Positions 549 through 36,633 are shown, counted from the first letter of the stretch. The stretch: 64,000 nucleotides of DNA from Candidatus Poriferihabitans sp. (GCA_965220975.1 OZ244855.1:836742-900741); one strand, 5' to 3'. Numbers and translations: made by a program. The notes: a model not told the origin generated them from the sequence alone.

Positions 549-589
549 GACCAACTTTTTTTAGAGGAACAAAACCATGAAACAAATGA

Positions 590-602
590 CCCCCCCCCCC
601 CC
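590..602 (+). repeat. C13 homopolymer inside a 13-codon mini-ORF (577..618, MKQMTPPPPMSLT); remnant of the B-type leader seen at 17292
   Basis: Counted directly. ATGAAACAAATGA-C13 parallels ATGAAAATGACCATGATTA-C13 at 17292..17323. Confidence 0.9.
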
Positions 603-753
603 AATGTCATTAACTTAAGGAATAATTGTTTCCTTGAGTATGGCTTTGGCGGTTGATAATGCCCAAATTGACCGAAAAACATGGTCATTTCTGTATGAAA
701 TACTACAATCCATAACTATTTGGAGATGAAAAATGCTTAAGTTAATGACATTG
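602..753. repeat. 18-bp perfect inverted repeat pair (602..619 caatgtcattaacttaag; 736..753 cttaagttaatgacattg) bracketing 116 bp
   Basis: Read directly on both strands. The right arm is codons 2-7 of the 733..1383 gene. The bracketed segment holds the GGAG RBS and the ATG. Confidence 0.9.
692..701 (+). promoter_or_regulatory. Candidate extended -10 element (tgtatgaaat) for the 733 gene
   Basis: Aligns with tgttagaat at 35916..35924 upstream of the paralogous leader. There is no convincing -35. Confidence 0.25.
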
Positions 754-1383
754 CTCCCCCCCCCCCCCCTCGCTAGACTAGCGTTGCCCTGCTCGCTGCT
801 TGCAGTGCTGGCGCTTTCCCTGCCGATGGCCGCACAAGCCCAGGCGACCTGTCCTTCAGGCCTTGAATTAAGAGAAAGCCTCAACACGCTGTCTTGCGAA
901 CGGCTCCGACAGTGCACACACGCAGAGGTCGCAATCAGGATCGCCCATTCTCAAACCAAAAAAGGCGGTGCAGAGATGTTCCGGGCCCTGGAAAGATATC
1001 GCTATTGTAGCCAGAACCGGGGCGACTGGACCGAAGAGCGGTGGATGGACAAATGTACCCAGCAGGGCTGGAAAGTGTCCCGGCACTTCACCGCCGACTT
1101 TTTAGCGGAATGGGATATCCCGAATGGTGTAGATATCCACACAACGGAGTATTGTGTAGCCCACAAGAAAAACCCCTCGCGCTACAAACTGTATTTTGAC
1201 GGGAACGGGTTCCTCTACGAACAGCAACACTGCGAACAGGACCGGGACAACGACGGCTCGTTTGAAGGTGAGAATAGGAGGTTGCTCACTGGGTATGAGG
1301 CGCGGGTCAGTGGGAGCCCGAACTGTTCGCCCGTCGGACCCAATCCGACGCAGATCCCCAAATGGGTCGCGCCCTGGGACTGA
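733..1383 (+). CDS. Secreted Cys-rich hypothetical protein with A-type poly-C leader (in frame as sequenced)
   Basis: GGAG RBS 9 nt upstream. N-terminus MLKLMTLLPPPPLARLALPCSLLAVLALSLPMAAQAQA looks like a signal peptide. GC-rich island. Leader is paralogous to 35957. Confidence 0.65.
   Translation: MLKLMTLLPPPPLARLALPCSLLAVLALSLPMAAQAQATCPSGLELRESLNTLSCERLRQCTHAEVAIRIAHSQTKKGGAEMFRALERYRYCSQNRGDWTEERWMDKCTQQGWKVSRHFTADFLAEWDIPNGVDIHTTEYCVAHKKNPSRYKLYFDGNGFLYEQQHCEQDRDNDGSFEGENRRLLTGYEARVSGSPNCSPVGPNPTQIPKWVAPWD
756..769 (+). repeat. C14 homopolymer within the signal-peptide coding region (translated LPPPPL)
   Basis: Counted directly from the sequence. Confidence 0.95.
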
Positions 1384-1534
1384 GGTCATGCGCGAACGTG
1401 GCCAGGCCTGCTTCCTGGTCATGGGCGGCAGGGCTACGCGACGGTCAACGAGTGGGGCGAGACCGACGGCAGCATTCAGTGACATGCAAACAGACAATAT
1501 AATCTGTTAACCAACAAAAACACTGAAAACAAAA

Positions 1535-1560
1535 GGGGCGCAACACACGCCCCTTTTTAT
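1535..1560 (+). terminator. Rho-independent terminator-like hairpin (ggggcg-N7-cgcccc followed by ttttt)
   Basis: GC stem plus T-run about 150 nt after the stop at 1383. An A-run upstream makes it potentially bidirectional. Confidence 0.6.
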
Positions 1561-1569
1561 TGGCGAACA

Positions 1570-2001
1570 GTGATCGAGCGATCAACATCGGGAAGTCGGC
1601 TACTTTGCTCAGATGTTGACCGACATCGCCCGGCTGGTGGTACATCGGTCGCTTCTGGATCATCGGGCGTACTGAGGGGCTATATGACCGATGCACCCGG
1701 ACATGAACTCCGTGAGCAGTTTGTTGGCGAGATCGCTGGTGCTTACGGCCTACACGCTTCGCTTTTCACGTCGAATCTGCCGATTGCCGGACTTCGAGAG
1801 GTTCGAAGGTTGTTCATCAAGCAGACAGCGCAACCGATTGCCCGAATGATGGCTGTGGAAATTTCGACAAAGACCAATTTGGACGTGACGATCAAGTGGC
1901 CACCGAGTGCAAGCGACGCGCCCGCGTGCGCTTACAAAGCCCTGCGCGAGAACGAGATCCCTACCGAACGAGCTTTAGAATTATCAGGATTGTCCCAATG
2001 A
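1570..2001 (+). pseudogene. Possible C-terminal fragment of a phage/GTA HK97-type portal protein
   Basis: The translation ...GLREVRRLFIKQTAQPIARMMAVEISTKTNLDVTIKW...YKALRENEIPTERALELSGL resembles portal C-termini from memory. There is no N-terminal two-thirds and it is GC-rich. Confidence 0.3.
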
Positions 2002-2481
2002 AAAAACCGAGAGCAGACACCACCAGCATTCGCATTAACCGTGCCGTTTTTAAGGTGCGCTAGACTATTTAGCGCAAGAGTTGACGCTTCATTGAGGCCG
2101 AAACTTAACGCATGGCAATGCGCTGGAGTGGATTTTTTGTCTGGTGCGGGATCGCCTAGCAGAGATCGAAAAGTACGCCCGCCCGGTTGAGTTTGAGGTG
2201 CTTCGAAACAAACTAAACTGGGCACCGAGAATCACGATCATGAATACCTTTTATGGTTGGACAACGTCATGAAAGAAACTATCCAAAGACACCGGAAAAT
2301 CGAAGACAGGGGAGTGCAGGAATGGCGGGACGAGTTGGCCGCTTATGCAGAACATTTAAGCGATCCGGCTGAGAAGCTGAGTCTTTTGCAAAAGTATCAA
2401 TCAAAGAAAACCTGGCTTAAGCGGGGTTTTCTTTACCTGTGCGACGCTCACGGTTAGCATAATGATGAACAGCATGGTTTG

Positions 2482-3525
2482 TCATACTCGAGTACTCATG
2501 GCCTTGAGCATGATCGACTTGTTGATTTCTCCGCATAATTCGCCGTTTTCATCGACTACACAACAGGAATGATCGCAACTTGTCAATATATCGATCAGGG
2601 AATCGAGTTTGTCGTTCTTGTTGACAACTGGCCCACCATCAGAGAGTGATACATTGCGTGGTGGCAACATCACCTTGCCAACACTTAAAACTCGATAGCG
2701 GGGTACATCTTCTGTAAATTCTCGTACGTATGCATCTGCTGGTGTTGAAACAATATCTTCAGCCGTGCCGATTTGTGATGTCACTCCATCCTTCATGATT
2801 GCAATGTGATCACCCATTTTGATTGCTTCCAGAAAATCATGAGTGATGAAAACCATGGTCTTTTTCAGCTTGTCCTGAAGACTTAGCAGCTCGTCCTGCA
2901 TTTCGCGGCGGATGAGCGGATCCAGAGCACTGAACGGCTCGTCGAATATCAGGATTTCCGGATCAACAGCCATGGCTCGGGCTAGCCCGACTCTTTGTTG
3001 CATGCCGCCGGAAAGCTCCTTGGGGTAATTATCCTGCCACCCTCCTAGACCGACCATCTCAAGTACCTCAACAGCTTTTTCGAGCCGCTCGTTTTTTTTG
3101 ACCCCCTTGATTTCAAGGCCAAAAGCGATGTTTTCGATAATCGTACGGTGAGGAAACAGTCCAAAATGCTGAAACACCATGCTCATCTTGTTGCGGCGAA
3201 GTTCGGTTAATTCATGGCTGTTCATTCTGATTACGTCAACACCATCAATCAATACTTCACCAGCAGTCGGTTCGATCAGACGTGACAAGCATCGAACTAG
3301 AGTGGACTTGCCGCTCCCAGACAGCCCCATGACGACGAATGTCTCTCCATGCTCAACGACAAAAGACATGTCCCGAATGCCAATGATATGTCCGGTCTGT
3401 TCCTGGACTTGTGCTCGCGTCAGCGAATGATCAAGTTCCTGTAGCGTTTTTTCCGGGTTGGGGCCAAAGATCTTCCAGATGTGGTTACAGACGATTTTTG
3501 GATTATGTTGGGTGTTCGAACTCAT
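2482..3525 (-). CDS. proV: Glycine betaine/proline-type ABC transporter ATP-binding protein with C-terminal CBS region
   Basis: Walker A GLSGSGKST, signature LSGGMQQRVGLARA, Walker B ILIFDEPFSALD, and a ProV-like tail. Confidence 0.85.
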   Translation of the reverse strand: MSSNTQHNPKIVCNHIWKIFGPNPEKTLQELDHSLTRAQVQEQTGHIIGIRDMSFVVEHGETFVVMGLSGSGKSTLVRCLSRLIEPTAGEVLIDGVDVIRMNSHELTELRRNKMSMVFQHFGLFPHRTIIENIAFGLEIKGVKKNERLEKAVEVLEMVGLGGWQDNYPKELSGGMQQRVGLARAMAVDPEILIFDEPFSALDPLIRREMQDELLSLQDKLKKTMVFITHDFLEAIKMGDHIAIMKDGVTSQIGTAEDIVSTPADAYVREFTEDVPRYRVLSVGKVMLPPRNVSLSDGGPVVNKNDKLDSLIDILTSCDHSCCVVDENGELCGEINKSIMLKAMSTRV

Positions 3526-4278
3526 CTTAAATCTGCCGAAAATACTTGCTTGAATACCTCGGGGATGTTATGGAAACACAGAAGGAATAGTTAGTTCATA
3601 ACCGGAAACAGGATCAGTCAAGATAGTATCACATAGTGCGCGACTGTTTGCAGGTTTTCAGCAAATATATTATGCAAGACCTTCGAATCGACAGGACAAG
3701 AGATGCCAAATCGGTTGCATGTTTCAGGGCAATCAGTCTGCGGCAAGACATTATCGAGAGCCTAGGATCTTGTGTCACAAGACTTGCTCATCAAGCCTTG
3801 TAACAATGCGATATATGTCGCTACCGACAGTCTGATGGAAATGCAATCATGTCGGAGAACTCCTGTACCTGCTTCCATCAAAGCGATGGCTTCGAACGTC
3901 ATAACACTCATCTCAACCTGTCAGTTGGAAATACTTCGAAACCGCTCTTTGCCTGTGCGTATTTTCACAGCAATCAACTTTACCCAGATTGATGACACAA
4001 TATCACCCATGGTAAAGCCGATGCGAAATCGAGAATTTCTGTACAAATAGGATGCAACATTTGAACTTGCTCGGCATTTTCCCGATCATGGGATCACAAT
4101 CGATTGCATGAATCAAGTTGAATTCAGCTAGCTGCCTGACTGCATCTGTATCTGCTTTGCTCAACAGCATCACGGGTTGCGAACACCACTATCTGGTGAA
4201 CGCAAAATTTTTCTTGAAAATTTGATTGAATCGCATGACACTTATACTTGTCCATCAACCAGACACTGAGGGCCTATT

Positions 4279-5172
4279 TTGAATTTCAACGCTTTTATAA
4301 CTTGTGCAGTCACCGGGTCTGGAAACTCGGTTGGCAAACATCCTGATATACCAATCACCCCTGAACAAATCGCCAATGCGGCAATTGACGCCGCCAAAGC
4401 AGGAGCTGCTATCGCGCATATCCATGTGCGCGAGCCCCAATCGGGTGCTCCGTCCCGAAAACCGGAGTACTTTTCCGAAGTAATCGACCGAATACGAGAC
4501 AGCGACACGGATGTTGTCATTAATGCGACTGCCGGCATGGGAGGTGATCTCGTTTTCGGTGCCGGTGAAAATCCTTTGCCGCCTGATCCGGAGGGTACGG
4601 ATATGGCAGGCCCACTGGAAAGACTTGCACATGTTGAACAACATCTCCCTGAAATATGCACTCTGGATTGCGGCACCATGAACTTTGCTGAAAGCGACTA
4701 TGTCATGACCAATACCCCAGGCATGCTGCGGACCATGGCCAAAAAAGTTCAGGAGCTCGGGGTTCGCCCGGAGCTGGAAGTGTTTGACACCGGACATCTG
4801 GTATTTGTCAAGGAGTTGATTCGAGAGGGCTTGATCGATGATCCGGTAATGATTCAGCTGTGTATGGGTATTCCCTATGGTGCACCGGATGACCCCACAA
4901 CCCTGATGTCAATGGTTCATGCTCTGCCTGCTGGATCCGTGTTTTCGGCTTTTTCCATTGGGAGAAACGAATTACCCTATGTGGCCATGGCCGTCCTGGC
5001 CGGAGGTAACGTGCGTGTTGGCCTTGAAGACAACTTGTACCTCTCTCGGGGAGTTTATGCCACGAATGCACAACTGGTAGAAAGAGCCGTCACCATTTTA
5101 ACGGCTATGGGTGTTTCTATCATGGACCCCGAATCTGTTCGAAAAAAACTGAACCTCACGAAACACGCTTGA
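4279..5172 (+). CDS. BKACE-family (DUF849) beta-keto acid cleavage enzyme, likely dehydrocarnitine cleavage enzyme
   Basis: ITCAVTGSG...PITPEQIANAAIDAAKAGAAIAHIHVREP is the typical BKACE N-terminus. It lies immediately upstream of the carnitine dehydrogenase. TTG start is assumed. Confidence 0.75.
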   Translation: MNFNAFITCAVTGSGNSVGKHPDIPITPEQIANAAIDAAKAGAAIAHIHVREPQSGAPSRKPEYFSEVIDRIRDSDTDVVINATAGMGGDLVFGAGENPLPPDPEGTDMAGPLERLAHVEQHLPEICTLDCGTMNFAESDYVMTNTPGMLRTMAKKVQELGVRPELEVFDTGHLVFVKELIREGLIDDPVMIQLCMGIPYGAPDDPTTLMSMVHALPAGSVFSAFSIGRNELPYVAMAVLAGGNVRVGLEDNLYLSRGVYATNAQLVERAVTILTAMGVSIMDPESVRKKLNLTKHA

Positions 5173-5179
5173 AATTCAG

Positions 5180-6673
5180 ATGCAAGTTAAAACAGTCGGA
5201 CTGATCGGCGGCGGAGTTATCGGTTCAGCATGGGCGGCTCGGTTACTGATCAATGCCGTTGACGTGAGGATATACGATCCAGACCGGCAATTATCATCGC
5301 GTCTGGATAAAGTACTCGACAATGCACTCAGAGCCTATCGAAAAATGACCTTGGCTCCAATTGAAATTAGGGGTGAATTGCAGATTGTCAGTTCGATTGA
5401 AAAAGCAGTTTCTGGCGCTGACTTCGTTCAGGAAAGCGGGCCGGAAAGGATTGACCTGAAACAGAAGCTTTTCAGGGAAATCGCATCATGTGCTGCTGAT
5501 CAAGTTGTCATTGCTTCATCAACATCCGGTCTTTTACCTAGCGATATGCAACAAGGCATCAAAAATCCGGAGCGAGTAATCGTCGGTCATCCATTTAATC
5601 CCGTTTACCTGTTGCCACTGGTAGAGATCGTGGGTGGTCAACAAACATCCGAGAAGGCAATTCACCATGCGAAAGAATACTATTCACAGATCGGCATGCA
5701 TCCACTGGTTGTGAAGAAGGAAGTGCAGGCTTTTCTGGCAGATCGCATGATGGAGGCTATGTGGCGTGAATCCCTGCATCTGATCAATGAAGGTGTAGCG
5801 ACAGCCGATGAACTGGATCAGGCGATCGCTTATGGACCTGGAATACGCTGGGCATTTATGGGACCATACCTTACTTATCGAATTGCCGGAGGGGAGGGCG
5901 GCATGCGGCATTTCATGTCTCAGTTTGGCCCGAGTCTAAAATGGCCATGGACTCGTTTTGATGGCCCAGACCTAACTGACAATTTGCTGCATCGGATTAC
6001 TGAGCAATCCGATCAGCAGGCTCAAGATCGATCCATATTCGAACTTGAACAGAAACGTGATGATTGCATCGTGTCCATTCTGCAAGGACTTCGGGTTAAT
6101 GAAACCAGTGCCGGCCAAACGCTGGCAAAATATGAGGAAAAATTATATCGAATCTCTCATGCTGATAATCAGACATCGATCGGATTTTCAGAACATGACT
6201 TTAATCAACCCCTGCAACTGCATTCCGGCACAGTTCCTCCAGAGTGGGTTGATTACAACCAGCATATGACGGAAAGCAGTTATCTGCGAGCGATTGGTGA
6301 TGCATCAGATGCCCTGTTTCAGTTGATTGGCGTGAATGAGACATACCATCAACAGGGTTTCAGTTATTTCACGGTCGAAACTCATTTGGTTCATCAGGGA
6401 GAGATCATGGCCGGAGAGACATTTTATTTCCGAACTCAGCTTCTGAACCTGGATGCAAAACGGTTGCATATCTGTCATTCCATGTATGCGGCCAAAGATC
6501 ACCGGATCCTGGCCACGGGAGAGCAGATGTTGCTACATGTAAACACCCGTGAATCCAGATCCTGTCCCGCTGAGCCAGCAATCTTGGAGCGATTAAGGAA
6601 AATTTATGAGGGACAGCGCAATCTTGAGTTGCCGATCAACTGTGGTCGCTCAATTCAGATGCCTGGTTCTTAG
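5180..6673 (+). CDS. L-carnitine dehydrogenase (3-hydroxyacyl-CoA dehydrogenase fold) fused to a C-terminal 4HBT-type thioesterase (betainyl-CoA thioesterase-like)
   Basis: N-terminal Rossmann motif VGLIGGGVIGSAWA. The C-terminal ~150 aa have a hotdog-thioesterase pattern (WVDYNQHMTESSYL...FTVETHLVHQGE). Confidence 0.7.
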   Translation: MQVKTVGLIGGGVIGSAWAARLLINAVDVRIYDPDRQLSSRLDKVLDNALRAYRKMTLAPIEIRGELQIVSSIEKAVSGADFVQESGPERIDLKQKLFREIASCAADQVVIASSTSGLLPSDMQQGIKNPERVIVGHPFNPVYLLPLVEIVGGQQTSEKAIHHAKEYYSQIGMHPLVVKKEVQAFLADRMMEAMWRESLHLINEGVATADELDQAIAYGPGIRWAFMGPYLTYRIAGGEGGMRHFMSQFGPSLKWPWTRFDGPDLTDNLLHRITEQSDQQAQDRSIFELEQKRDDCIVSILQGLRVNETSAGQTLAKYEEKLYRISHADNQTSIGFSEHDFNQPLQLHSGTVPPEWVDYNQHMTESSYLRAIGDASDALFQLIGVNETYHQQGFSYFTVETHLVHQGEIMAGETFYFRTQLLNLDAKRLHICHSMYAAKDHRILATGEQMLLHVNTRESRSCPAEPAILERLRKIYEGQRNLELPINCGRSIQMPGS

Positions 6674-7449
6674 TGATGAATTTTAATGACCAAAGCGTTC
6701 TGATTACTGCTGGAGCATCTGGAATCGGTAGAGCGATAGCTCTCGAATTCCATAAGGCCGGGGCATCGGTGCACGTTGTTGATATTGACAAAGAGGCGGG
6801 AAGAAAGATGGAGAATGCATCGCCTGAAATCATGGTCTCGATCGCGGATGCATCGAATGAAGCACAAACAAGGAGCATTGCAGAACAACATGTCAAGACC
6901 TATGGAGGCATTGATGTCCTGATCAATTGCGCCGGGATTGCCGGTCCTACTGCTCCTGTTCAGGATGTTGCTCTTGATGATTGGCAGCGTTGCATAGCGG
7001 TTAATCTTGATTCGACTTTTCTGTATTGCCGAGAACTAATCCCTAGCATGCAAAGCGCTGGACGCGGATCAATCATCAATATTTCATCAACAGCTGGATG
7101 GCATGGATACCCGCTTCGCTCTCCTTATGCTGCGGCGAAATGGGCGGTGATTGGGTTGACCAAGACACTGGCTATGGAACTTGGCCCACATGGTATTCGA
7201 GCGAACGTGATTTGCCCTGGGAGTATCAATGGAGACCGCATGGACGGCGTAATTGCCGCAGAATCAGAGCAAAGGGGTCTATCAGAACAGGCCCTGCGAA
7301 CGAAATATACGAACTGCTGCTCATTGCGAACATTTATCGATGCAGAGGATATCGCTCGGATGGCGTTGTTTTTGGCTTCTCGCGATGCCAGTCGAATCAC
7401 GGGTCAGATTATGAATGTTGATGGGCATATTGAGAATTTTGGGGCGTGA
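6673..7449 (+). CDS. Short-chain dehydrogenase/reductase (SDR) family oxidoreductase
   Basis: TAGASGIGRA cofactor motif and the YAAAK catalytic motif; 258 aa. Confidence 0.8.
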   Translation: MMNFNDQSVLITAGASGIGRAIALEFHKAGASVHVVDIDKEAGRKMENASPEIMVSIADASNEAQTRSIAEQHVKTYGGIDVLINCAGIAGPTAPVQDVALDDWQRCIAVNLDSTFLYCRELIPSMQSAGRGSIINISSTAGWHGYPLRSPYAAAKWAVIGLTKTLAMELGPHGIRANVICPGSINGDRMDGVIAAESEQRGLSEQALRTKYTNCCSLRTFIDAEDIARMALFLASRDASRITGQIMNVDGHIENFGA

Positions 7450-7528
7450 CCACTTTGATTGAAACTCCCACTCCGTCAAATGAAAAAGAAATGAAACGAG
7501 CCAAACGACCAACCGGATATTCAATTCG

Positions 7529-8695
7529 ATGAACTTTGAGTTAAGTGAAGAGCAGAAACTTTTGGTCGAGACGGCAAGGCGTTTTGTTGAGGAGGAGCTT
7601 TACCCTCATGAAGAGGAAGTTGAAAAAACTGCAAATGTGCGTCCTGAACTGCGTCAGCAGATCATCAGACGGGCGATTGAAGTAGGCTTGTATGCAGCCA
7701 ATATGCCCGAAGAACTGGGAGGTGGAGGCCTTGATCCTCTTTCGATGTGTATGCTGGATCGAGAACTGGGTCGGGCGAGTTATGCGTTGCAATACACGGT
7801 TGGACGACCCAGCAATATATTGCAGGCTTGTGTGGGCGATCAGAGAGAGCAGTACCTGTTCCCGTGTATTCGAGGTGAAAAAACCGATTGTCTCGCAATG
7901 ACCGAGCCTGGAGCGGGGTCGGATGTCCGATCAATGTCCACCCGTGCAACGAGAGATGGGCAGGATTTCATTATCAATGGAACCAAGCACTTTATCAGTC
8001 ATGCAGATATTGCCGATTTTGTCATCCTGTTTGCGGCAACCGGGGCGGATCAAACACCACGCGGCCCAAGAAAACGAATTACTGCATTTCTGATTGACAA
8101 GGAAACCAGAGGTTTTGCAGTCAGAGATGGCTACCAGAGCGTATCCAACCGCGGCTATCACAATTGTATTTTGGAGTTCGATAACTGCAGAATTCCGCAT
8201 ACGCAGGTGCTCGGAGAAGTGGACAAGGGTTTTGCGGTAGCCAATGACTGGTTGGGCAATACCCGATTACAAGTTGCTGCAATCTGTCTCGGAAAATGTG
8301 ACCGGGCTTATGAGCTGGCTTGCAACTATGCCGCAACCCGAGTACAGTTTAATCAGACTATCGGCAAGTTTCAGGGCGTATCCTTCAAACTGGCCGACAT
8401 GGCAATGAAGTTGCGAGCAGCAGAATTGATTACCTACCAAGCTGGCACCAAGGCCAATGCCGATGAAATGAGCGATATGGATGCAGCCATGGCCAAGTTG
8501 GCGGCGACTGAAGCACTGGCCTTTATTGCGGATGAAGCGATTCAGATTCATGGCGGCATGGGCTTGATGTCCGATTTACCGCTGGAGAGAATCTGGAGAG
8601 ATGCGAGAGTCGAGCGGATTTGGGAGGGAACAAGTGAAATCCAACGCATGATTATCGCTCGGTCGATTTTGCGTCCATTAGAATCAACACGGTAA
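7529..8695 (+). CDS. Acyl-CoA dehydrogenase (CaiA-like chemistry plausible)
   Basis: CLAMTEPGAGSD and QIHGGMG...RIWEGTSEIQR motifs are typical of the ACAD family; 388 aa. Confidence 0.85.
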   Translation: MNFELSEEQKLLVETARRFVEEELYPHEEEVEKTANVRPELRQQIIRRAIEVGLYAANMPEELGGGGLDPLSMCMLDRELGRASYALQYTVGRPSNILQACVGDQREQYLFPCIRGEKTDCLAMTEPGAGSDVRSMSTRATRDGQDFIINGTKHFISHADIADFVILFAATGADQTPRGPRKRITAFLIDKETRGFAVRDGYQSVSNRGYHNCILEFDNCRIPHTQVLGEVDKGFAVANDWLGNTRLQVAAICLGKCDRAYELACNYAATRVQFNQTIGKFQGVSFKLADMAMKLRAAELITYQAGTKANADEMSDMDAAMAKLAATEALAFIADEAIQIHGGMGLMSDLPLERIWRDARVERIWEGTSEIQRMIIARSILRPLESTR

Positions 8696-12826: not shown

Positions 12827-12832
12827 TGCTCA

Positions 12833-17208: not shown

Positions 17209-17220
17209 GGGGGGGGGGGG
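17209..17220 (+). repeat. G12 homopolymer directly upstream of a TTGAAA hexamer, 72 nt before the 17292 start
   Basis: Counted directly from the sequence. Confidence 0.95.
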
Positions 17221-17291: not shown

Positions 17292-18086
17292 ATGAAAATG
17301 ACCATGATTACCCCCCCCCCCCCATGCGGCATCGCACAACTTAAGCGCCTGACGGCACTCGCCGCCGCCCTGGCCGCCGGTCTTGTCCTCCTGGCCGGAC
17401 CGGTTGCGGCGCAGTCATTCAGGTTCCCCGGCAACTTTGATCACCTTACGGAAGTCCAGCTGAACGAGGGCAGGGGCCTCGAGAACCCCGTGACCTCGCT
17501 GAACGGCTTCCTCACAGATCAAACCCCCGAAGCAGGGAGATTTCCGGCTTCTGTCACGAATCTGGACATCGAGGTCCTGGACTGGCCCGCTACCGCTACC
17601 CTCGGTGTGGGAGCTACATCCCGGTGTGCCTATGGCAGTGGAGATGCAACGCGTCTGGTCGGCTTCCACAACGCGACTGGCACGTATACCCATAATCAGC
17701 CCATCGCCACAGCCTGCACGTACTGGGGTCAGCCAAAATGCTCGAGAACAGTGACCGTTCGCGGAAGGACATACACGGCCAATCGTGGATCCCCTTCCTG
17801 TGACAGCATGGACAATGTGCCCATGAGCACCCGTATCGCCCATACCGGCATGTTCACCGTCCGGATCTGGGGCAAGGTGTGCTACACTTCGAACCTTGTA
17901 TGTCTACCGGCGAGGGAGCCAATACCAGCAAGAGGCGCGGGCAACATCAATACCAATGGGTATATCGCTACCTTCAAAGGCGGAGGCAACAATTGCGGCC
18001 CGGCCATCTGGCCCACGCCGGAGATGCGGGCTGCGGGCGCCCCGCCCTATGCCGCGTATTGTGATTTCACCTTTGATATAAGGTGA
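17292..18086 (+). CDS. Secreted Cys-containing hypothetical protein with B-type poly-C leader (in frame as sequenced)
   Basis: MKMTMITPPPPCGIAQLKRLTALAAALAAGLVLLAGPVAAQ looks like a signal peptide. GC-rich. The listed ORF start at 17247 is probably too far upstream; the exact ATG (17292, 17298 or 17304) is uncertain. Confidence 0.6.
   Translation: MKMTMITPPPPCGIAQLKRLTALAAALAAGLVLLAGPVAAQSFRFPGNFDHLTEVQLNEGRGLENPVTSLNGFLTDQTPEAGRFPASVTNLDIEVLDWPATATLGVGATSRCAYGSGDATRLVGFHNATGTYTHNQPIATACTYWGQPKCSRTVTVRGRTYTANRGSPSCDSMDNVPMSTRIAHTGMFTVRIWGKVCYTSNLVCLPAREPIPARGAGNINTNGYIATFKGGGNNCGPAIWPTPEMRAAGAPPYAAYCDFTFDIR
17311..17323 (+). repeat. C13 homopolymer within the leader coding region (translated TPPPP)
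   Basis: Counted directly from the sequence. Confidence 0.95.
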
Positions 18087-26170: not shown

Positions 26171-26172
26171 TT

Positions 26173-26616: not shown

Positions 26617-26636
26617 TTGTTTCGAGCAATCCGACC

Positions 26637-28890: not shown

Positions 28891-28961
28891 TAGTAATGCT
28901 TGCCAGATTATATCCTTGTGACAAAAATTGGTCTGGAGACGAATGAATTCGGTGTTTTGCG

Positions 28962-30092
28962 ATGAATGATCAGAATTACTGCAGTTGTCCGTTTTGTGAC
29001 TCTGTATTTATTTTGCGCAAGAGTCTCTCGAAGGTGATTTGCGGAAATTGTGGCGAAATGTTCGATGCGAATCTTAATCGTGTTGTCCGAGTTGGCAATC
29101 GATTTATTCCGGATGTCGGGATTCCAAACGTAAATGGAGAGCCTGACAACTCATTCTCGCCCCATGTCAACTCTCAAAATGGGTACGGTGCAGAACAGCA
29201 ATCCATGGATGAAGATGAACATGAATCCGAGCAGAGAGGATCCCTGAATTTAAATATAGAGCCAAAAACGAATCTGAGAACACAGCAGCATAAGACCGTT
29301 AATCTTCGAGAACCGACCATAACCCTGCCCGAAGAATCAACAAAGGAACGAAATGGGCAATTTGCGCAAAATTCTCCATCAGATGAAGAAATTGGCTTAT
29401 CGACAACAGAACAGACGCAACCCTCGCTCGTGGCTGAGGAATCTGAACAATCAGGGAATCAGTCTGCTCATGGTTCCAGATCTTTCAGTTTCACTCGTAA
29501 ATCTGCAAAAAAGCGATCCAAAGTTCGTGCATCTTCCTCGCCTAAAAGCACACATGGCTTTGACCGCATGCAGAAACAAAAGAGCCAGGTTACTGATCTA
29601 ATCAAGGATCAAGGCAGCCCTGTTTCGATTATTGTATGGAGCGTTGTCAGCATTGTATTTCTCTCAATTCTAGTAATGCAAATCGAAGCTTTTGCAGTGC
29701 CCAAATATGCACAAACCACACAATATCGACCGTATCTTGTGGCGTTTTGCAAGATCATTCAATGTGAACTGCCCATGTTTGAAGATGTCGAAAAACTGGA
29801 TCTCGTTCACTTCAACATTGAACCTCATCCTAGTCATCCCGACGCTTTCAGGATCACTGTCAAGTTGATCAATGAAGCGGAGCATCCACAACCTTACCCA
29901 GAAATACAGTTGACACTTCGGGATAAGTTTGGTCGTATTATAGGACAACGAATTTATCCGGCATCGGTGTATTTGCCTGAAAATATCGAAAACAAAATGG
30001 TTTCCGGCGCTCTCTCTTCGGTTATGTTGGATCTTGCAAAACCCCATGATAATGCCCATGGATTTCGGGTTGACATAGTCGGTGATGAATGA
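28962..30092 (+). CDS. Zinc-ribbon (MJ0042-type) / DUF3426 membrane protein
   Basis: N-terminal CPFCDSVF...CGNCGEMF zinc ribbon, a low-complexity linker, one TM helix (IIVWSVVSIVFLSILV), and a C-terminal DUF3426-like domain. Position is conserved after prmA. Confidence 0.65.
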   Translation: MNDQNYCSCPFCDSVFILRKSLSKVICGNCGEMFDANLNRVVRVGNRFIPDVGIPNVNGEPDNSFSPHVNSQNGYGAEQQSMDEDEHESEQRGSLNLNIEPKTNLRTQQHKTVNLREPTITLPEESTKERNGQFAQNSPSDEEIGLSTTEQTQPSLVAEESEQSGNQSAHGSRSFSFTRKSAKKRSKVRASSSPKSTHGFDRMQKQKSQVTDLIKDQGSPVSIIVWSVVSIVFLSILVMQIEAFAVPKYAQTTQYRPYLVAFCKIIQCELPMFEDVEKLDLVHFNIEPHPSHPDAFRITVKLINEAEHPQPYPEIQLTLRDKFGRIIGQRIYPASVYLPENIENKMVSGALSSVMLDLAKPHDNAHGFRVDIVGDE

Positions 30093-30520
30093 TCGGTGGA
30101 ATGCGCCAATCCTGAAACAGGGTGCTTTGTATCAGGCGAAAAGATATTATATGCTGTTGGCTTTAGCTTAGGATGCGGAATCATCCATTAGGTGAAACAC
30201 CAGTCCCGAGAACCAAGCACACAGGTCTTTGAGGTACTTTCGTTTTCTAAAGAAGGATCTAGGTTTAACAATCCTGTTTATGGGTACCTGACCACCTGCT
30301 AAAATTTGTATTTCCCGGTCTTTTTGAAAATCAGGTTTGTTGATTGAGACAAGGAGACATGAATTTACCGTTCCAATGCGGTTTCTTCCATTTGTTAATA
30401 TCAAATTCTATTGAGGATCATTCAAGGTTTATAATTTACAGACTGCCATATCAATCAACTCATCAAACCGAGATATCGAATTTTCACAACAACGATTTAA
30501 AAATCAGACAATTATGGACA

Positions 30521-30742
30521 ATGATTAAACAACAAATCAAGAATGCGCTTGATGAATACATGGAGCAGTCGGACGAAAACATGCTTTGTAATTTGTACAA
30601 CATAGTGCTGGGTGAGGTCGAAAAAGTGCTACTTGAATCGGTCATGGAACGAGTCAATCATAATCAAACGCAAGCTGCCCGCCTGTTGGGTATTAATCGC
30701 AACACACTTCGTCGAAAACTGGAAAAGCATGATCTATCCTGA
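30521..30742 (+). CDS. fis: DNA-binding protein Fis
   Basis: C-terminal HNQTQAARLLGINRNTLRRKLEKH HTH. The internal ATG at 30521 gives a 73-aa Fis-sized product; the longer listed ORF start has AT-rich non-coding character. Confidence 0.8.
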   Translation: MIKQQIKNALDEYMEQSDENMLCNLYNIVLGEVEKVLLESVMERVNHNQTQAARLLGINRNTLRRKLEKHDLS

Positions 30743-30786
30743 AGAATTGATTGATCTTCTTCAAGCCCGACAAGGTCAGCGTTGAA

Positions 30787-32355
30787 ATGGTTAGACCAAT
30801 AAAAAGGGCTCTTGTCAGTGTTTCCGATAAGAGCGGACTGATTCCATTTGCTGATTTCCTGGTTAGTCGACACATTGAGATCATCTCTACTGGTGGAACC
30901 CAGACACATCTCAAGCAACACAATATTCCAGTTCTTGGAATTGATGAATACACTGGCTTTTCCGAGATCATGGGAGGTCGAGTCAAAACCCTGCACCCGA
31001 AAATACATGGGGGAATCCTGTCTCGCAGAGATGAAGATCGTGACGAGATGGAGCGTTGCCTGATTTCCGAGATAGACCTCGTCGTTGTTAACCTGTATCC
31101 ATTCGAAAAAACCATAGACAAACCGGACTCTACATTCGAAGACGCAATAGAAAATATCGACATTGGTGGCCCGGCCATGTTACGCGCCGCGGCCAAAAAC
31201 CATCGGCATGTTACCGTGATTTCAGATATTAGCGATTATGAGAGAGTCATGTCTGAAATGCTTGAAAATGAAGATAGAACTTCAGAAAACCTCCGTAAAT
31301 CACTCGCTGCAAAAGTGTTTCGGCATACAAGTCAATATGATAAGAATATAGCCAATTATCTGGACAGGGATTCATCCCATTCTCACTTGAACTTTCCTCC
31401 GGTTTTTCAGTCTCAATATGTGTTGAAGCAGACATTGAGATATGGTGAGAATCCACATCAAGAGGCAGCCTTCTATATTGATGAGAATCGAACAATGCCG
31501 AGTGTATCGACTGCCCAACTGCTGCAGGGTAAAGATTTATCTTTCAATAATATTGCAGATGCGGACGCTGCAATCCACTGTGTACTGCAATTTGATGAAG
31601 AACCCGCTTGTGTAATCGTGAAGCATGCTAATCCTTGTGGTGTCGCTTTGGCAGATTCGATTTGCAGTGCCTATGAACGAGCATATTCAACAGATCCAGA
31701 ATCTGCGTTTGGTGGAATTATTGCCTTCAATCAAGAGCTTGATCGTGATACCGCATCAACCATTCTTAATCGGCAGTTTGTTGAGGTCATTGTGGCTCCA
31801 AAAATCACCTCCGATGCATTGGAAGTGCTCGATACTAAATCCTCAATTCGTGTGCTCCAATTGGGAGATTGGAATCATGCCGACCCAAAGTCTCAGCAAA
31901 TGGATTTAAAAAAGGTTAGCGGTGGCCTGCTGATACAAACACCTGATGATAATTTGTATGAAAAATTCGAATGTGTAACCAAACGCTCTCCAACCGAGCA
32001 AGAGAGTCAGAATTTGCTGTTTGCCTGGAAAGTAGCCAAATTTGTGAAATCAAACGCGATTGTCTATGCTGGCAACAAAATGACCTTGGGGGTTGGCGCA
32101 GGACAAATGAGTCGTGTAAATTCCGCACGGATTGCTGGCATCAAGGCTTCACAAGCCGGTCTCGATATTGATGGAGCCATAATGTCATCCGATGCATTTT
32201 TTCCATTTCGTGATGGAATTGACAATGCTGCAAAATCCGGAATCAAGGCAATTATTCAACCTGGAGGATCGGTTCGAGACGATGAGGTGGTTGCAGCGGC
32301 AAACGAACATGAAATTGCGATGGTCTTTACCGGCATGCGCCATTTTCGGCATTAA
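30787..32355 (+). CDS. purH: Bifunctional AICAR transformylase / IMP cyclohydrolase
   Basis: [28 protein letters not shown] and the C-terminal QPGGSVRD...[11 protein letters not shown]. Confidence 0.92.
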
Positions 32356-32370
32356 AGAAAGGCAAACCGT

Positions 32371-33657
32371 TTGAAAAAAGTTCTTGTTATTGGTTCAGGA
32401 GGGCGAGAACATGCTTTGGCATGGAAAGCCGCATCATCGCCGGAAGTCTCTGCTGTTTTTGTTGCGCCGGGAAATGCCGGAACAGCTATGGAGCATAAGA
32501 CTACAAATATTCCTCTGAAAGAATCAGATTTCGACGGATTGACGAGTTTTGCGCTTGATGAACAGATTGACCTTGTGATTGTTGGGCCAGAAAACGCCTT
32601 GGTTGATGGAATTGTTGATCAGTTCAGGGACGTTGGAATATTTTGTTTTGGACCGAACAAAACTGCAGCCAAATTGGAGGGATCAAAAGCATTTTCCAAG
32701 GAGTTCATGACCCGTCACAATATCCCGACTGCCAGATTTCAATCCTTCACCAGTTCGAAAAAAGCCAAAGATTATCTCGATTATCAGAAGTTTCCATTGG
32801 TAGTGAAAGCGGATGGACTTGCGGCCGGGAAGGGTGTTGTCATTTGTCAGGATCGAAATCAGGCTGAACAGTGTATAGACGAGATGCTTTCTGGCAAACT
32901 GTTTAATAAGGCAAGTGAAAGAATTATCATCGAAGAATGCTTGCAGGGCGAGGAAGCTAGCTTCATTTGCATGGTGGATGGGCAGGATTTTTTGGTATTG
33001 GCATCAAGCCAAGATCACAAGGCCGCCCTAAACGGTGATCGTGGTCCCAATACTGGTGGCATGGGTGCCTATTCTCCGGCTCCTGTGATTGACGCCAAAA
33101 TGCAACGGAACGTGATTGAGCAAGTTATCGAACCAGCCACTAATGGACTTGTTAAAGAGGGTATCCTCTATACAGGATTCCTTTATGCAGGGCTCATGAT
33201 TCAAAATGATATCCCCCATGTTCTTGAATTCAACTGTCGAATGGGGGACCCGGAATCGCAAGTGATCATGACACGCATGAAATCTGATTTTGTGAAATTA
33301 TGTATGACTGCCTTACAAGGTCGTCTTGGTGAAGCACAGATTGATTGGTATCGAGAGACTGCTCTTGGAGTAGTCATGGCATCTGGGGGATATCCAGGAA
33401 GTTATGAAAAAGGGCATGAAATACATGGGCTTGAAACTGTCTTCTGTAATAACATCAAAGTTTTTCATGCAGGCACAAAATTGATCAATGGGCGTGTCGA
33501 GACTTCTGGTGGCCGAGTCCTTTGCGTCACAGCATTATCGGACAACATCCTCCATGCCCAGAATGATGCTTACGGAGCTGCATCGTCAATTCGCTGGGAA
33601 GGTAGTTGGTACCGTGATGATATAGGATATCGAGCTATAAATCGGTTTTCAGACTAA
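32371..33657 (+). CDS. purD: Phosphoribosylamine--glycine ligase
   Basis: KVLVIGSGGREHALAWK, VVKADGLAAGKGV, EFNCRMGDPE. TTG start. Confidence 0.9.
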   Translation: MKKVLVIGSGGREHALAWKAASSPEVSAVFVAPGNAGTAMEHKTTNIPLKESDFDGLTSFALDEQIDLVIVGPENALVDGIVDQFRDVGIFCFGPNKTAAKLEGSKAFSKEFMTRHNIPTARFQSFTSSKKAKDYLDYQKFPLVVKADGLAAGKGVVICQDRNQAEQCIDEMLSGKLFNKASERIIIEECLQGEEASFICMVDGQDFLVLASSQDHKAALNGDRGPNTGGMGAYSPAPVIDAKMQRNVIEQVIEPATNGLVKEGILYTGFLYAGLMIQNDIPHVLEFNCRMGDPESQVIMTRMKSDFVKLCMTALQGRLGEAQIDWYRETALGVVMASGGYPGSYEKGHEIHGLETVFCNNIKVFHAGTKLINGRVETSGGRVLCVTALSDNILHAQNDAYGAASSIRWEGSWYRDDIGYRAINRFSD

Positions 33658-33710
33658 ATCTGAATTTTTTCATCCGCACAAAGTAGTTATTTTTCTAATC
33701 CTCTCTCGGT

Positions 33711-33739
33711 TTCCAAAATAGCAGGGCATTATTTTGGAA
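33711..33739. repeat. 10-bp perfect AT-rich hairpin (ttccaaaata-N9-tattttggaa) between convergent purD and the ATPase gene
   Basis: Read directly. There is no T-run, so terminator function is uncertain. Confidence 0.4.
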
Positions 33740-33817
33740 ATCCCCATTCAACTATGAAGTGGGGGTACTCAAAGCTGGAAAAAGGTCACGATTGGGTTTG
33801 GATTTGTGAGTTATTTC

Positions 33818-34972
33818 CTAAACATATTCACGGTTCCAGAGGCGACGCAAAAATTCCTCCCAGTGTTGGTGTTGTATGCCGTTATCAAACGATGCGCTTG
33901 TCGAATCCCTAGAGACCACCAGCAGGTGTTTCCATTGTCTTTCCTTGTTTAGAGCAAGTAGACCTTTGTGGTCTCGTTTGCTGACTGACTTTCCACTTTT
34001 TACTTCAATGGCGATTTCATCACCAATTACGAAATCGACTTCAGCTCCAGCTCGTGTACGCCAAAATTGCAAAGGCAGTCGAATCCGACTGTAACTAAGA
34101 AATGCACGAAGTTCACAGGCGATGAAATGCTCAAATGCCATACCAAAAAGATCGCTGCCGGAATCAAGAGACCGAGTATCTCGCAAGGCATTGACGATAC
34201 CCGTATCGAAGAGATAAAACTTGTTGGTTTGCACGAACTTGCGGGCTTGTGAACCTCGCCAAGGCGGTACTTGAAACCCAATTAGCGTATCGATGAGAAT
34301 CTGATAATAGTCTCGGACAGTATTCGGCGAAAGCTGAGCATCGTTGGCAACTTTTGCATAATTCAGGACCTTGGCATTATTGAATGCTACGCTTTGTAAA
34401 AATCTCGTGTAATTTGGCAAACTTCGAACGAGGCCCTCAAACTGAATTTCTTCCTTCAGATAAGTATCAACATAAGCGTATAGGTAGTCCTCTCCATGCT
34501 CACCGAGAAAAGCGGTGGGAAGCCCGCCAAGTCGAAGGTAGCGGTGCAAATCGAATCGATCGTAATAAGACAACTCGAACCATGTGAACGGAAAAATTTC
34601 TGCCCGAAATGCTCTCCCTGCAAGTAAATTCACTCCTTTTCGTCGTAAGCTTCGTGCACTGCTACCAGTGAGCAGAAAGCGCTGGCCTTCAGTTTCGATA
34701 GCGCGATGTACTTCATTGAGCAATTCCGGGATTCGCTGAATTTCATCGATAACGATGAATGGTTTCGAAATCAACGAATGCAACAATGCAGGGTCTGACT
34801 TTAGGTGCAAATACGTTCTAGAATCGAGCAAATCGATATAGTCTGCCGCTTTGAGGCAGCTCGAACAGATCAGGAAGCTCTTGCCACTTCCTCGTGGTCC
34901 AAACAGGAAATGCGAGGAACGGCCCAGCAATTCCATGAGGTCTAGTTGACGCCTAATCATGAATATACGCAA
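33818..34972 (-). CDS. AAA-type ATPase with C-terminal DUF4143-like domain, function unknown
   Basis: Walker A FGPRGSGKSF and Walker B-like FIVIDEIQRIPEL; 384 aa architecture typical of this widespread orphan family. Confidence 0.7.
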   Translation of the reverse strand: MRIFMIRRQLDLMELLGRSSHFLFGPRGSGKSFLICSSCLKAADYIDLLDSRTYLHLKSDPALLHSLISKPFIVIDEIQRIPELLNEVHRAIETEGQRFLLTGSSARSLRRKGVNLLAGRAFRAEIFPFTWFELSYYDRFDLHRYLRLGGLPTAFLGEHGEDYLYAYVDTYLKEEIQFEGLVRSLPNYTRFLQSVAFNNAKVLNYAKVANDAQLSPNTVRDYYQILIDTLIGFQVPPWRGSQARKFVQTNKFYLFDTGIVNALRDTRSLDSGSDLFGMAFEHFIACELRAFLSYSRIRLPLQFWRTRAGAEVDFVIGDEIAIEVKSGKSVSKRDHKGLLALNKERQWKHLLVVSRDSTSASFDNGIQHQHWEEFLRRLWNREYV

Positions 34973-35100
34973 TTGTTTCGTGGATATTTATGAATTATCC
35001 CCGAAATGACTATGGATATGCAACAATTAATTTTCGAGAATTATCCGTATTTTTTGAGCCATCATGAATCATTGCGCTCTCAGTCTTATTTGCTGGAAAC

Positions 35101-35245
35101 GAGTTATGATCGAGAGTAGTGCGCGGGTCGGAAAGGGGTTGAAAAAAGCGGCGTAGCCGGATTAACTATTTGATTAACAAAAAAGTTAACCGAAGATGCC
35201 TGTCACCATTCTTTATGCGTAAGCGATGATAAAGTTCCCTGTGAA
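35101..35245 (+). mobile_element. Truncated left end of an IS256-family element (solo terminal inverted repeat plus 5' UTR remnant)
   Basis: gagttatgatcgagagtagtgcgcgggtcggaaaggggttgaaaaaagcggcgtagccggattaacta is about 85-90 percent identical by eye to 60169..60236 of the intact IS. Similarity fades around the transposase start. Confidence 0.7.
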
Positions 35246-35273
35246 AAATTGTAACCAGATAATGAAAAACTCA

Positions 35274-35561
35274 CTAGTCCACCGATATAAAGTAGGCGGC
35301 GCATCCAATCAGGGCACTTGGGAACGCCGTTGCCCCGCCGACCATTATCATGGTAGCGTTGTTGATTCTTTTCTCCCGATCCAACCTGTCGGTCTTCCGA
35401 TTGGCCATGTCGGTCCGCAACCGCTCGAAAGTCGCGTTCATGCGCTCGAGCGCGGTTTCCGTTTCAGCTTGTTTCATGTTCATCTTCTTCTCCAGCACGG
35501 TGTGCTGTTTCTTCAACTCGGCAAGGTCTTTTTCCCATTCGTGAATAGTCGGTTCGGTCAT
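35274..35561 (-). CDS. Small hypothetical coiled-coil protein with C-terminal hydrophobic segment
   Basis: 95-aa ORF with charged heptad-like sequence, then IMVGGATAFPSALIGCAAYFI. There is a weak GGAG upstream. I recognise no family. Confidence 0.35.
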   Translation of the reverse strand: MTEPTIHEWEKDLAELKKQHTVLEKKMNMKQAETETALERMNATFERLRTDMANRKTDRLDREKRINNATMIMVGGATAFPSALIGCAAYFISVD

Positions 35562-35915
35562 TGTAAATATGCTCCATTGAAAAGACCATCATGCAGAACC
35601 GTGAATCGGAACAGGTTGCTGCATACAATGCCCGAAGCGGTTTCCGGGCGTCCAGGGATGCCCGAACACGGGGCTCGTCAGCACCCAAAATCCTGATGAT
35701 AGCTCGAGGAGAAAGCCATGGTGTCGCTTCGTAATCTTTTTTTGGAAGCCGGTTCATCTTCCGTTTGTCGAGCTGGCATATGGAGTTCCTCCCATGTGAA
35801 AGCATGTGGCAACCAGCAAAAAAGCCCGTTGCCGACCATTCGCCCGTTATCCATGATTCAGCAAATCGGCTGTAAATCATGGATCTGCCAGTCATGAAAA
35901 ACACGATTCAAACCG

Positions 35916-35924
35916 TGTTAGAAT
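35916..35924 (+). promoter_or_regulatory. Candidate extended -10 element (tgttagaat) for the 35957 gene
   Basis: TGnTAnnnT pattern 33 nt upstream of the ATG. The equivalent position is conserved at 692..701. Confidence 0.35.
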
Positions 35925-35956
35925 ACCTCAATCATTAATTCATTCGGAGATTGAAC

Positions 35957-36633
35957 ATGCTCAAGTTAACGACATTGCCCCCCCCCTCGCTAAACTAGCA
36001 ACACTCCTGCTCCTGGCGATGCTGGCCGGGCCGGTCGTGGCGCAGACGACCGTCACAAGCGCCGGACGGGAAGGCCCGACCGCTTGCCTGCAGGATAAGC
36101 CTGATCAGTCTGAGGTCGATGCCGAGAATTTCCCCATCACGGCCTTGTCCACAACCAGCGTGGCCGTCACTAATCCACAATTAATATGGAACCAATACAC
36201 CGGGAGGCTTGGCGATACGACACCACCCACAACAACCTCAGCGTTTGTCCAGATTTTCAACGCCCGCACAAATGCAAGTGTAGCGAGACGATCTGTGGGA
36301 ACCTTGAGTGGCACCCAAACGACTGTGGCCAACACAAGCCGAAGCATAAGTGGTCTGGTTGCGAAGACCAGCTATCATGTGGAATTTTATGTGGGTGCGA
36401 CAGGATCTATTCCGAAACAGGTGTTTGCCCGCCGCTGCTTCATGACCGGCGGCAACTACACCATGAATGTAGACCCTAATAGTACGCAAGGCCGGAGTAG
36501 CGGGTGCTTCTCGATCAGCCCCCTGACCCAGCAGCATGTCCGCAACTGCTGGTGCGGGCGCAAGACCACCCTGCCCCTGTTCCGTTCAACCCAGGACAAC
36601 ACCAATTTCCTGAACCGGTGGGGATGCCGATAG
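35957..36633 (+). CDS. Secreted hypothetical protein with A-type poly-C leader, out of frame as sequenced (phase-OFF); mature part has an FN3-like motif
   Basis: The ATG at 35957 reads MLKLTTLPPPSLN-stop with C9. One extra C would give MLKLTTLPPPLAKLATLLLLAMLAGPVVAQ..., joining the 36019..36633 ORF. GGAG RBS. ISGLVAKTSYHVEFYV resembles an FN3 strand pattern. Confidence 0.6.
35978..35986 (+). repeat. C9 homopolymer in the leader coding region
   Basis: Counted directly from the sequence. Confidence 0.95.

Follow-up and report, generated by a model that had tools for sequence, protein, structure and literature searches.

Poly-C export leaders in Candidatus Poriferihabitans sp.: candidate phase-variation loci with a miniature inverted-repeat element inside the tracts

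Introduction

A 64,000-nt stretch of DNA from Candidatus Poriferihabitans sp. (GCA_965220975.1, OZ244855.1:836742-900741), termed here the window, contains three genes (loci 1, 2 and 3) that begin with a signal-peptide-like leader, and each leader is interrupted by a long run of C residues. The tracts are C14, C13 and C9, and are located 5–8 codons past the ATG. An original prediction, made from the window alone, had proposed that one poly-C leader is fused to unrelated secreted proteins and that slipped-strand mispairing of the tract might switch the genes. The analysis presented here suggests that loci 1–3 are slipped-strand translational phase-variation loci for exported proteins, a reading to which we assign a probability of about 0.7. 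In addition, a miniature inverted-repeat transposable element (MITE) is found within the tract region of two of the loci.

Loci, tracts and leaders

The features at the three loci are as follows (RBS, ribosome-binding site; ORF, open reading frame; ON and OFF, tract in or out of frame with the gene).

560..589, + strand: remnant of the original locus 1 leader, with RBS-like GAGGAA and ATG 577 (MKQMT), severed from its gene
590-602, + strand: C13, the part left of the MITE in a poly-C tract that the insertion has divided
602..753, + strand: MITE, 152 bp, with perfect 18-bp terminal inverted repeats (602-619 and 736-753)
733..1383, + strand: locus 1 ORF, 216 aa, leader and Cys-rich mature domain of an uncharacterised family (family 1)
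756-769, + strand: C14, locus 1 leader tract, in frame as assembled
770..783, + strand: post-tract motif TCGCTAGACTAGCG; the ON frame reads L-A-R-L-A and both OFF frames reach TAG at once
17209-17220, no strand assigned: G12, intergenic, bordering a conserved promoter block on its left; the locus 2 ATG lies 72 nt downstream
17292..18086, + strand: locus 2 ORF, 264 aa, native leader MKMTMIT-PPPP-CGIAQLKRLTAL and family 2 mature domain
17311-17323, + strand: C13, locus 2 leader tract, in frame here, C15 (out of frame) in a second assembly
17324..17365, + strand: post-tract leader module CGIAQLKRLTALAA, replaced by a LAKLAT-type module in orthologs and present on an unrelated cargo gene (P0036)
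35895..35977, + strand: truncated MITE right end, about 83 nt, with RBS GGAG and ATG 35957 before the locus 3 tract
35978-35986, + strand: C9, locus 3 tract, OFF in both assemblies; C10 would be ON
35987..35999, + strand: post-tract motif TCGCTAAACTAGC; the ON frame reads L-A-K-L-A and the OFF frames reach TAA and TAG
36019..36633, + strand: locus 3 long ORF, signal-peptide end and family 3 mature domain, intact

The three tracts that had been predicted are all present at the lengths given, and two further long tracts had been overlooked, C13 at 590-602 and G12 at 17209-17220. C or G runs of at least 9 nt occur five times in the window, compared with 0.24 expected from base composition, and those of at least 12 nt occur four times (0.003 expected). 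The genes of loci 1–3 have a G+C content (GC) of 57–60% and lie in short GC-richer patches of a window that has 47% GC; the earlier description of an AT-rich genome was therefore overstated. Rfam and tRNA scans of the whole window gave no match, and sigma-70 promoter and terminator scans around the three loci gave hits at chance level.

As assembled, loci 1 and 2 are in frame and locus 3 is not. The leader of locus 1 reads MLKLMTLL-PPPP-LARLAL.... Locus 3 had been taken as one ORF at 35957..36633, but ATG 35957 leads through C9 to a TAG at 35993-35995 and the long ORF is in another frame. A C10 tract would yield MLKLTTL-PPP-LAKLAT... fused to ORF 36019-36633.

The native leader starts with an RBS and an ATG, followed by 4–8 codons and the C tract; then come a K/R-L motif, a hydrophobic core of Ala and Leu and a putative cleavage site of the A-x-A type. 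Mature N-termini are conserved directly after AQ. Signal peptides were assessed by eye, by a positive n-region, a hydrophobic core and small residues at −3/−1; the stretches inspected were ...PPPP-LARLALPCSLLAVLALSLPMAAQAQA, ...KRLTALAAALAAGLVLLAGPVAAQ and ...LAKLATLLLLAMLAGPVVAQ.

Variation in tract length and reading frame

Variation is seen between assemblies that otherwise agree. A second, independent assembly of the strain, from ENA, matches the window without a difference over 4.4, 3.6 and 7.5 kb (15.5 kb) except at two tracts of locus 2, G12/G13 and C13/C15. The C13/C15 difference lies in 3.6 kb that have no mismatches, and with C15 the gene is out of frame in the second assembly. A second pair consists of plasmid-like contigs from two samples, one at 6x and the other at 1470x coverage. 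Over 5,405 nt they differ only in a family 1 leader, which has C10 in one and C11 in the other and gives a 218-aa product and a 134-aa call, respectively.

Relatives of locus 3 show how general the arrangement is. A family 3 profile was used to scan one genome per species (GTDB representatives, a set that does not include the genome of the window), and of 148 matches 80 loci were kept. In 61 of these a tract of C6 to C23 is found 40–85 nt before the mature N-terminus, always with C on the sense strand; the leader is found on other cargo families as well (see below). A locus was scored ON when an ATG occurs within 60 nt upstream and no stop precedes the tract, GTG and TTG starts being ignored. 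By this rule 13 of the 61 loci are ON and 48 are OFF (binomial p = 0.03 versus 1/3). Integrity of the downstream ORF in OFF loci was judged from the span of tblastn matches across loci, and those of nearly all family 3 loci cover approximately residues 9–204 of the mature query, OFF copies included.

The sequence that follows the tract appears to be built for a sharp distinction between frames. Both wrong frames meet a stop within 15 nt past the tract in 50 of 61 loci, compared with 2.7% at random in-gene positions. The post-tract motifs, (A)TAAGTTAA and TCGCTAAA(C/T)TAGC, encode K-L or A-K-L-A in the right frame, and the first post-tract Leu codon is TTA or CTA in 75% of loci versus 17% in the mature part. 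Proline codons of the tract are all CCC; elsewhere in these genes CCC makes up 37% of Pro codons. Selection for poly-proline at the protein level was considered and rejected, because no other Pro codon occurs in the tract and the majority of alleles have the wrong frame.

Contingency loci are characterised by a homopolymer of about 8 nt or more in the 5′ coding region, by lengths that differ between otherwise identical sequences so as to shift the frame, and by an intact downstream ORF in OFF alleles. The tracts are C14, C13 and C9 in the window and C6–C23 in relatives, with one C33. Frame-shifting length differences are seen in the assembly pairs, where a consensus error at 6x coverage is possible, and an intact ORF is indicated by the tblastn spans and by ORF 36019-36633. 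The tracts are also found in Illumina/SPAdes metagenome-assembled genomes (MAGs), and therefore are not an artefact of long reads. The slipped-strand proposal fits these data, in that tract length is the sole difference between identical assemblies and varies from C6 to C23 in relatives, and from this we infer switching itself.

Several points weigh against switching. The lengths compared are those of consensus assemblies, which do not show heterogeneity within a population. One assembly of each differing pair has 6x coverage, and if it stems from long reads, consensus homopolymer lengths are error-prone. The ON and OFF calls come from a simple ATG rule that ignores GTG and TTG starts, and signal peptides were judged by eye. 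In OZ243980.1 all ten scored copies are OFF, and expression may not depend on the DNA frame. Lastly, promoter scans were at chance level, so that a role for G12 is a guess.

Leaders are shared, mature domains are not

In the 60 positions that flank the tract, which is itself left out, loci 1 and 3 agree at 45; other 60-mers of the window, on both strands, reach at most 31 of 60 (the locus 1 region and the query itself aside). The near-identity of the two modules that had been noticed is thus confirmed as a similarity, but not as a conserved native leader, since the part upstream of the tract is an inserted MITE end. What is natively shared is the tract together with the post-tract K/R-L segment. 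Locus 2 has the same architecture as loci 1 and 3 and no nucleotide similarity to them outside the tract.

In a profile–profile comparison of families 3 and 2, the leader alone aligns (94% probability) and the cargo does not, which supports the proposal of one poly-C leader on mature domains that cannot be aligned. The family 1 profile gives only short, weak matches to families 2 and 3 (about 80% probability with hhalign), in a C-terminal G-x-Y...NC-x-P motif. A weak motif G-x-Y-x-(T/A)-x-(V/F)...(N/G)-C-x-P is present in all three families (window 1240-1340, 17950-18010 and 36440-36520). Perhaps the three families are very distant relatives rather than strictly unrelated proteins. Sequence searches of Pfam, NCBIfam and PDB gave no usable match for families 1, 2 or 3, in agreement with the suggestion that the cargo belongs to no described family.

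Distribution and modularity

Protein searches yielded 8, 23 and 93 relatives for the products of loci 1, 2 and 3, respectively. Many of these start with poly-Pro leaders (...PPPLAKLAT..., ...PPPHKLI..., ...PPCGTAQLKRLTAL...), and in many others the called start is an internal Met, which is the outcome to be anticipated where a copy is out of frame. The family 1 homologs P0003 and P0006 also have poly-Pro leaders.

The 80 family 3 loci are from MAGs only. Alphaproteobacterial hosts include Aestuariivita, Paracoccaceae, Rhodospirillaceae and others; the remaining hosts are Arenicellales, Pseudomonadales, Ca. Azotimanducus, Ca. Poriferihabitaceae and Thiotrichales. Those MAGs that can be placed are sponge-associated. 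The family name Poriferihabitaceae appears in a Wellcome sponge genome note, and the MAGs with OZ accessions as a group probably stem from such sponge projects. Some genomes hold at least ten family 3 copies.

In 0.94 Mb of flanking sequence there are 27 further tracts of at least 9 nt, about half of them in the same leader on other cargo families. At least five other cargo families have the leader, one with C33, and pre- and post-tract modules occur in mixed combinations. The GC of family 3 genes is 57 ± 2.4% while that of the flanks ranges from 43 to 65%. One family 1 copy is on a plasmid-like, circular, Rep-encoding contig of 34 kb. The constant GC and the plasmid-like location together fit horizontal spread.

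One Aestuariivita MAG has two duplicated segments, 96% identical, each of which has a further tract 2 kb past its family 3 gene (L014 8132-8143 and L018 8051-8065). These second tracts are C12 and C15, and precede a 99-aa ORF that has no leader-like sequence.

The locus 2 region

Promoter block, start and tract are retained in orthologs of locus 2, which have a LAKLAT-type module in place of the post-tract CGIAQLKRL. The exchange begins exactly at the tract and ends within the Ala/Leu core. In one ortholog (L088 1501-1600) the tract is broken, C11-T-CCC; slippage is expected to be damped in this case, and it may represent a ‘locked’ allele.

The G tract upstream of locus 2 also varies. It is G12 in the window, G13 in the second assembly and G6 in L084; L084 and L088 are both orthologs, and L088 lacks the tract. 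No ORF was found on the opposite strand at 17209-17220. Conceivably, G12 is a second variable tract that tunes transcription of locus 2. It should also be pointed out that G12 and C13 are complementary and lie 90 nt apart around the promoter block, RBS and ATG; they could pair if co-transcribed, although the arrangement is not conserved (G6 in L084, none in L088).

A MITE inside the tracts

The sequence at 602-753 is, judged by its ends and its relatives, a MITE derived from an IS4-type (DDE_Tnp_1) insertion sequence (IS). Its terminal repeat occurs three times in the window compared with 0.09 expected. The right end carries an outward-facing RBS, GGAG (722-725), and the ATG of locus 1 (733). 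A copy in L037 (8561-8715) aligns with it over its full length, including the outward-facing RBS and ATG at the right end, and copies of about 150 bp with the same ends are found in L004, L014 and L037. The same ends, CAATG(N)CATTAACTTAAG, bound a 2.44-kb IS (L012 3489-5928), which encodes a transposase of 722 aa (L012 3562-5730, − strand) with an N-terminal DruA domain (DUF4338, Druantia-associated) joined to DDE_Tnp_1.

Dispersed copies show C-rich target duplications of 10–11 bp, CCTCCCAAACC and CCCCGCCGGC. The MITE of the window is flanked by C12-13 on the left and CT-C14 on the right, which fits a duplicated C run, inexactly. In L012 the full IS is situated as C11/IS/C13 within a family 3 leader.

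The insertion has severed the original leader of locus 1. Its pre-tract module, ATGAAACAGATTA-C13, also heads an intact leader in L085 (P0036), and the frame from ATG 577 hits a stop inside the MITE as assembled. At locus 3 only the right end of a MITE is present, and its left terminal repeat was not found in the window. Since the MITE end supplies RBS and ATG to both loci 1 and 3, the identity of the two loci upstream of the tract is accounted for.

An invertible promoter was considered for the 18-bp inverted repeat and rejected, since the same ends bound an IS that encodes a transposase, as well as scattered 150-bp copies that have target duplications. No recombinase was present among the neighbours scanned, and the second assembly has the same orientation.

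The octamer TAAGTTAA is common to the terminal repeat of MITE and IS (CTTAAGTTAATG...) and to the commonest native post-tract motif (Cn-ATAAGTTAA). This sharing, between the repeat at 736-753 and motifs in L004-L069, may be a coincidence or may point to an IS end derived from a leader.

The cargo proteins and neighbouring genes

Family 3 is the best modelled of the mature domains in the window. Its architecture is a divergent fn3 beta-sandwich followed by a C-terminal helical part with conserved cysteines (AlphaFold2 pLDDT 90.9); the model of family 2 is poor (pLDDT 65). The best PDB matches with Foldseek are FN3/monobody chains (E = 2e-4, target TM about 0.5). The family 3 profile finds only 118 clusters among 1.84 billion representatives, and it matches repeated domains in large proteins with E values from 5e-18 to 2e-7; large multi-domain proteins are among its weaker matches. 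Three of three such large multi-domain proteins that were scanned (P0190, P0199 and P0227) have Pfam fn3 domains. Locus 3 itself gives no match to Pfam fn3 (PF00041) at E <= 0.01 and is below the gathering threshold. The beta-sandwich model and the profile similarity to fn3 repeats nevertheless place it with the fn3-like fold, and the early guess of an FN3 domain holds.

Proteins with fn3 domains are among the ‘eukaryotic-like’ classes that are enriched in sponge symbionts (PMC11706023). Family 3 resembles this class in being of the secreted type with a divergent fn3 domain, and differs from it in that it is sub-threshold for Pfam fn3 and has one domain plus a Cys-containing helical tail. No report of phase-variable genes for eukaryotic-like proteins was found in the literature searched.

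A pair of genes resembling a toxin–antitoxin module is located downstream of locus 3:

36783..37419, − strand: genes for a ParE-like toxin and an RHH antitoxin-like protein, within the GC-rich patch that holds locus 3

A BrnT/RHH pair likewise adjoins the family 1 copy on the plasmid (L086/L087). At 60169-61569 the window contains a complete IS, bounded by 38-bp inverted ends, whose transposase is of the Mutator family (Transposase_mut), and a solo end of this IS lies at 35100-35191, 0.8 kb upstream of locus 3. Look-ups of ORF 35226-35696 and of protein P0014 gave no match. Elsewhere in the window, a 972-aa ORF (48025-50943, − strand) with a weak N6_Mtase match lies in a GC-richer patch (52–53%) and may belong to a restriction–modification or defence island.

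Proposed mechanism and alternatives

Each of loci 1–3 would be a simple-sequence contingency locus with a tract-bearing export leader. Slipped-strand mispairing during replication would alter n of poly(C)n, presumably at a high rate and reversibly. In one length class of three, translation that starts at the ATG would cross the tract as CCC codons (poly-Pro) and continue in the frame of the signal peptide, and a small Cys-containing protein would be exported. In the other two classes the ribosome would meet, within a few codons, a stop that is built into the post-tract motif, and there would be no export. At locus 2 the upstream G12 may in addition tune transcription, a suggestion made with little confidence. 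Leader segments on either side of the tract are swapped between genes, with the tract as breakpoint. Cassettes of about 57% GC are common to sponge symbionts of the Alpha- and Gammaproteobacteria, and the number of family 3 copies in a genome reaches about ten, mostly OFF. The IS4-type IS/MITE, which inserts in C-rich targets, has landed in the tracts of loci 1 and 3, where it now supplies RBS and ATG.

Slippage could also take place at the level of decoding, by polymerase stutter on the C run or by re-pairing of tRNA-Pro on CCC.CCC during a poly-Pro stall. Every allele would then give some in-frame product, and the tract would set a low level of it. This would explain why 79% of alleles are out of frame and have near-full-length mature tblastn matches, and why ten scored copies of one genome are all OFF; within the tract CCC is read in all three frames. 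Transcriptional slippage at poly(A) is established as a means by which insect endosymbionts rescue frameshifted genes, and +1 shifts occur readily at CCC-N sites. However, transcriptional slippage is best documented at A/T runs rather than C runs. The DNA length itself differs between otherwise identical assemblies and between recent paralogs, and the stops that come at once in either wrong frame are consistent with a hard OFF state. We consider decoding slippage rather unlikely as the principal explanation; it and a DNA switch are not mutually exclusive.

The tract might instead serve chiefly as a hot spot for recombination and insertion, a junction of leader modules and an IS/MITE target, with frame changes as a by-product. 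The replacement of the post-tract module exactly at the tract between orthologs, the mixed pre- and post-tract combinations, and the presence of IS/MITE within tracts at loci 1 and 3 of the window and in L012 (other targets being C-rich) are all in keeping with this. A hot spot leaves unexplained the stops in both OFF frames, the constant position 5–8 codons past the ATG and the exclusive orientation with C on the sense strand. A hot spot would complement slipped-strand switching rather than compete with it, and on its own we regard it as improbable. Least probable, with a very small chance, is that the loci are non-functional: the genes may be pseudogenes that decay on junk islands, the tract lengths and frames may be homopolymer errors made in metagenome assembly, or both. 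Locus 3 is out of frame and uncalled as a gene, and the protein search gave no 100% match to it; IS/MITE insertions lie within leaders, and the second assembly has only 6x coverage. But decay or error does not agree with near-full-length mature-domain tblastn matches of OFF copies, with an architecture conserved over two bacterial classes and several cargo families, with tracts in Illumina MAGs, or with an OFF length on the contig at 1470x coverage. The double-stop and TTA/CTA signatures are likewise unexpected in decaying sequence. Slipped-strand phase variation of the DNA remains the favoured explanation, and from the length differences and the leader features we infer replication slippage as the cause, its high rate and reversibility, and export of the products.

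Significance

Phase variation by repeat slippage is a textbook strategy of host-adapted pathogens, and it has hardly been considered for the dense, long-lived communities of sponges. A search of the literature gave no account of sponge symbionts with phase variation, contingency loci or slipped-strand mispairing, although coverage was incomplete and this is absence of evidence only. How symbionts escape a host that feeds on bacteria is an open question. If the leaders switch, part of the secreted ‘eukaryotic-like’ repertoire of symbionts would be expressed stochastically and heritably, and would pass from class to class in the form of ready switchable cassettes. Most copies would then be mis-scored, as truncated genes or pseudogenes, in gene catalogues built from MAGs.

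This raises the question of whether a mobile toolkit exists across classes of sponge symbionts. Recombination could attach a modular, phase-variable leader (poly-C plus a double-stop trap) to small secreted ‘eukaryotic-like’ proteins of any kind, individual cells would express a stochastic subset of host-interaction factors, and mutualists would thereby practise antigenic or surface variation against sponge phagocytosis or recognition, with the tract-homing IS/MITE and its RBS and ATG as a further means of rewiring. This broader view is offered tentatively, and the odds are against it at present.

Apart from its biological role, the leader appears to be a compact natural design for a hard translational switch, i.e. 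a tract followed by overlapping stops in both wrong frames. It also provides an example of a mobile element that enters a mutable tract and re-supplies a start codon.

Comparison with known systems

The MITE of the window resembles the Correia elements of Neisseria in that these are short and non-autonomous, have terminal inverted repeats and target duplications, are found adjacent to genes and can provide expression signals from an end. It differs in that its end carries an RBS and ATG, with a predicted translational fusion through poly-C, and in that the parent is an IS4-type element with a DruA-domain transposase.

With respect to the tracts, Campylobacter, Helicobacter and Haemophilus have surface-related genes with homopolymers of G or C of at least 8 nt in the 5′ part of the coding sequence, and these are length-polymorphic between and within strains. 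The leaders of loci 1–3 share such homopolymers with these contingency genes, whose tracts are scattered in ordinary coding sequence; the tracts described here are in a conserved, transferable double-stop leader cassette that crosses bacterial classes. Homopolymers can also switch promoters, as in the poly-C of Bordetella fim and the poly-G of Treponema tpr. The G12/G13/G6 tract of locus 2 is similar in that it lies upstream of a promoter block and varies in length across assemblies and orthologs, but promoter scans for −35/−10 elements gave hits at chance level, and it is missing in L088.

The opa genes of Neisseria have CTCTT repeats in the leader region of about ten dispersed paralogs, whose frames are independent and few of which are ON at once. 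Like opa, the family described here is multicopy and dispersed, with its own leader repeat in each copy. The repeat is a homopolymer here and a pentamer there; Opa proteins are outer-membrane beta-barrels, whereas the present products are small soluble-looking proteins with conserved cysteines, one family being fn3. Pfam, NCBIfam and PDB sequence searches showed no homology of the products of loci 1–3 to Opa or PilC families.

Neisseria pilC, which reportedly has a poly-G tract in its signal-peptide coding region, is alike in having a signal-peptide homopolymer and a secreted or surface protein that is decided by frame. The poly-C leaders are on the sense strand, reach up to 33 nt, and are found with many unrelated cargo families in two bacterial classes; there is no sequence relationship to pilC, and the hosts are sponge symbionts and not a pathogen. 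The type of switch is thus classical. What differs is the transferable double-stop leader cassette, its presence on several unrelated cargoes in two classes of symbionts, and a tract-seeking IS/MITE that brings a new start.

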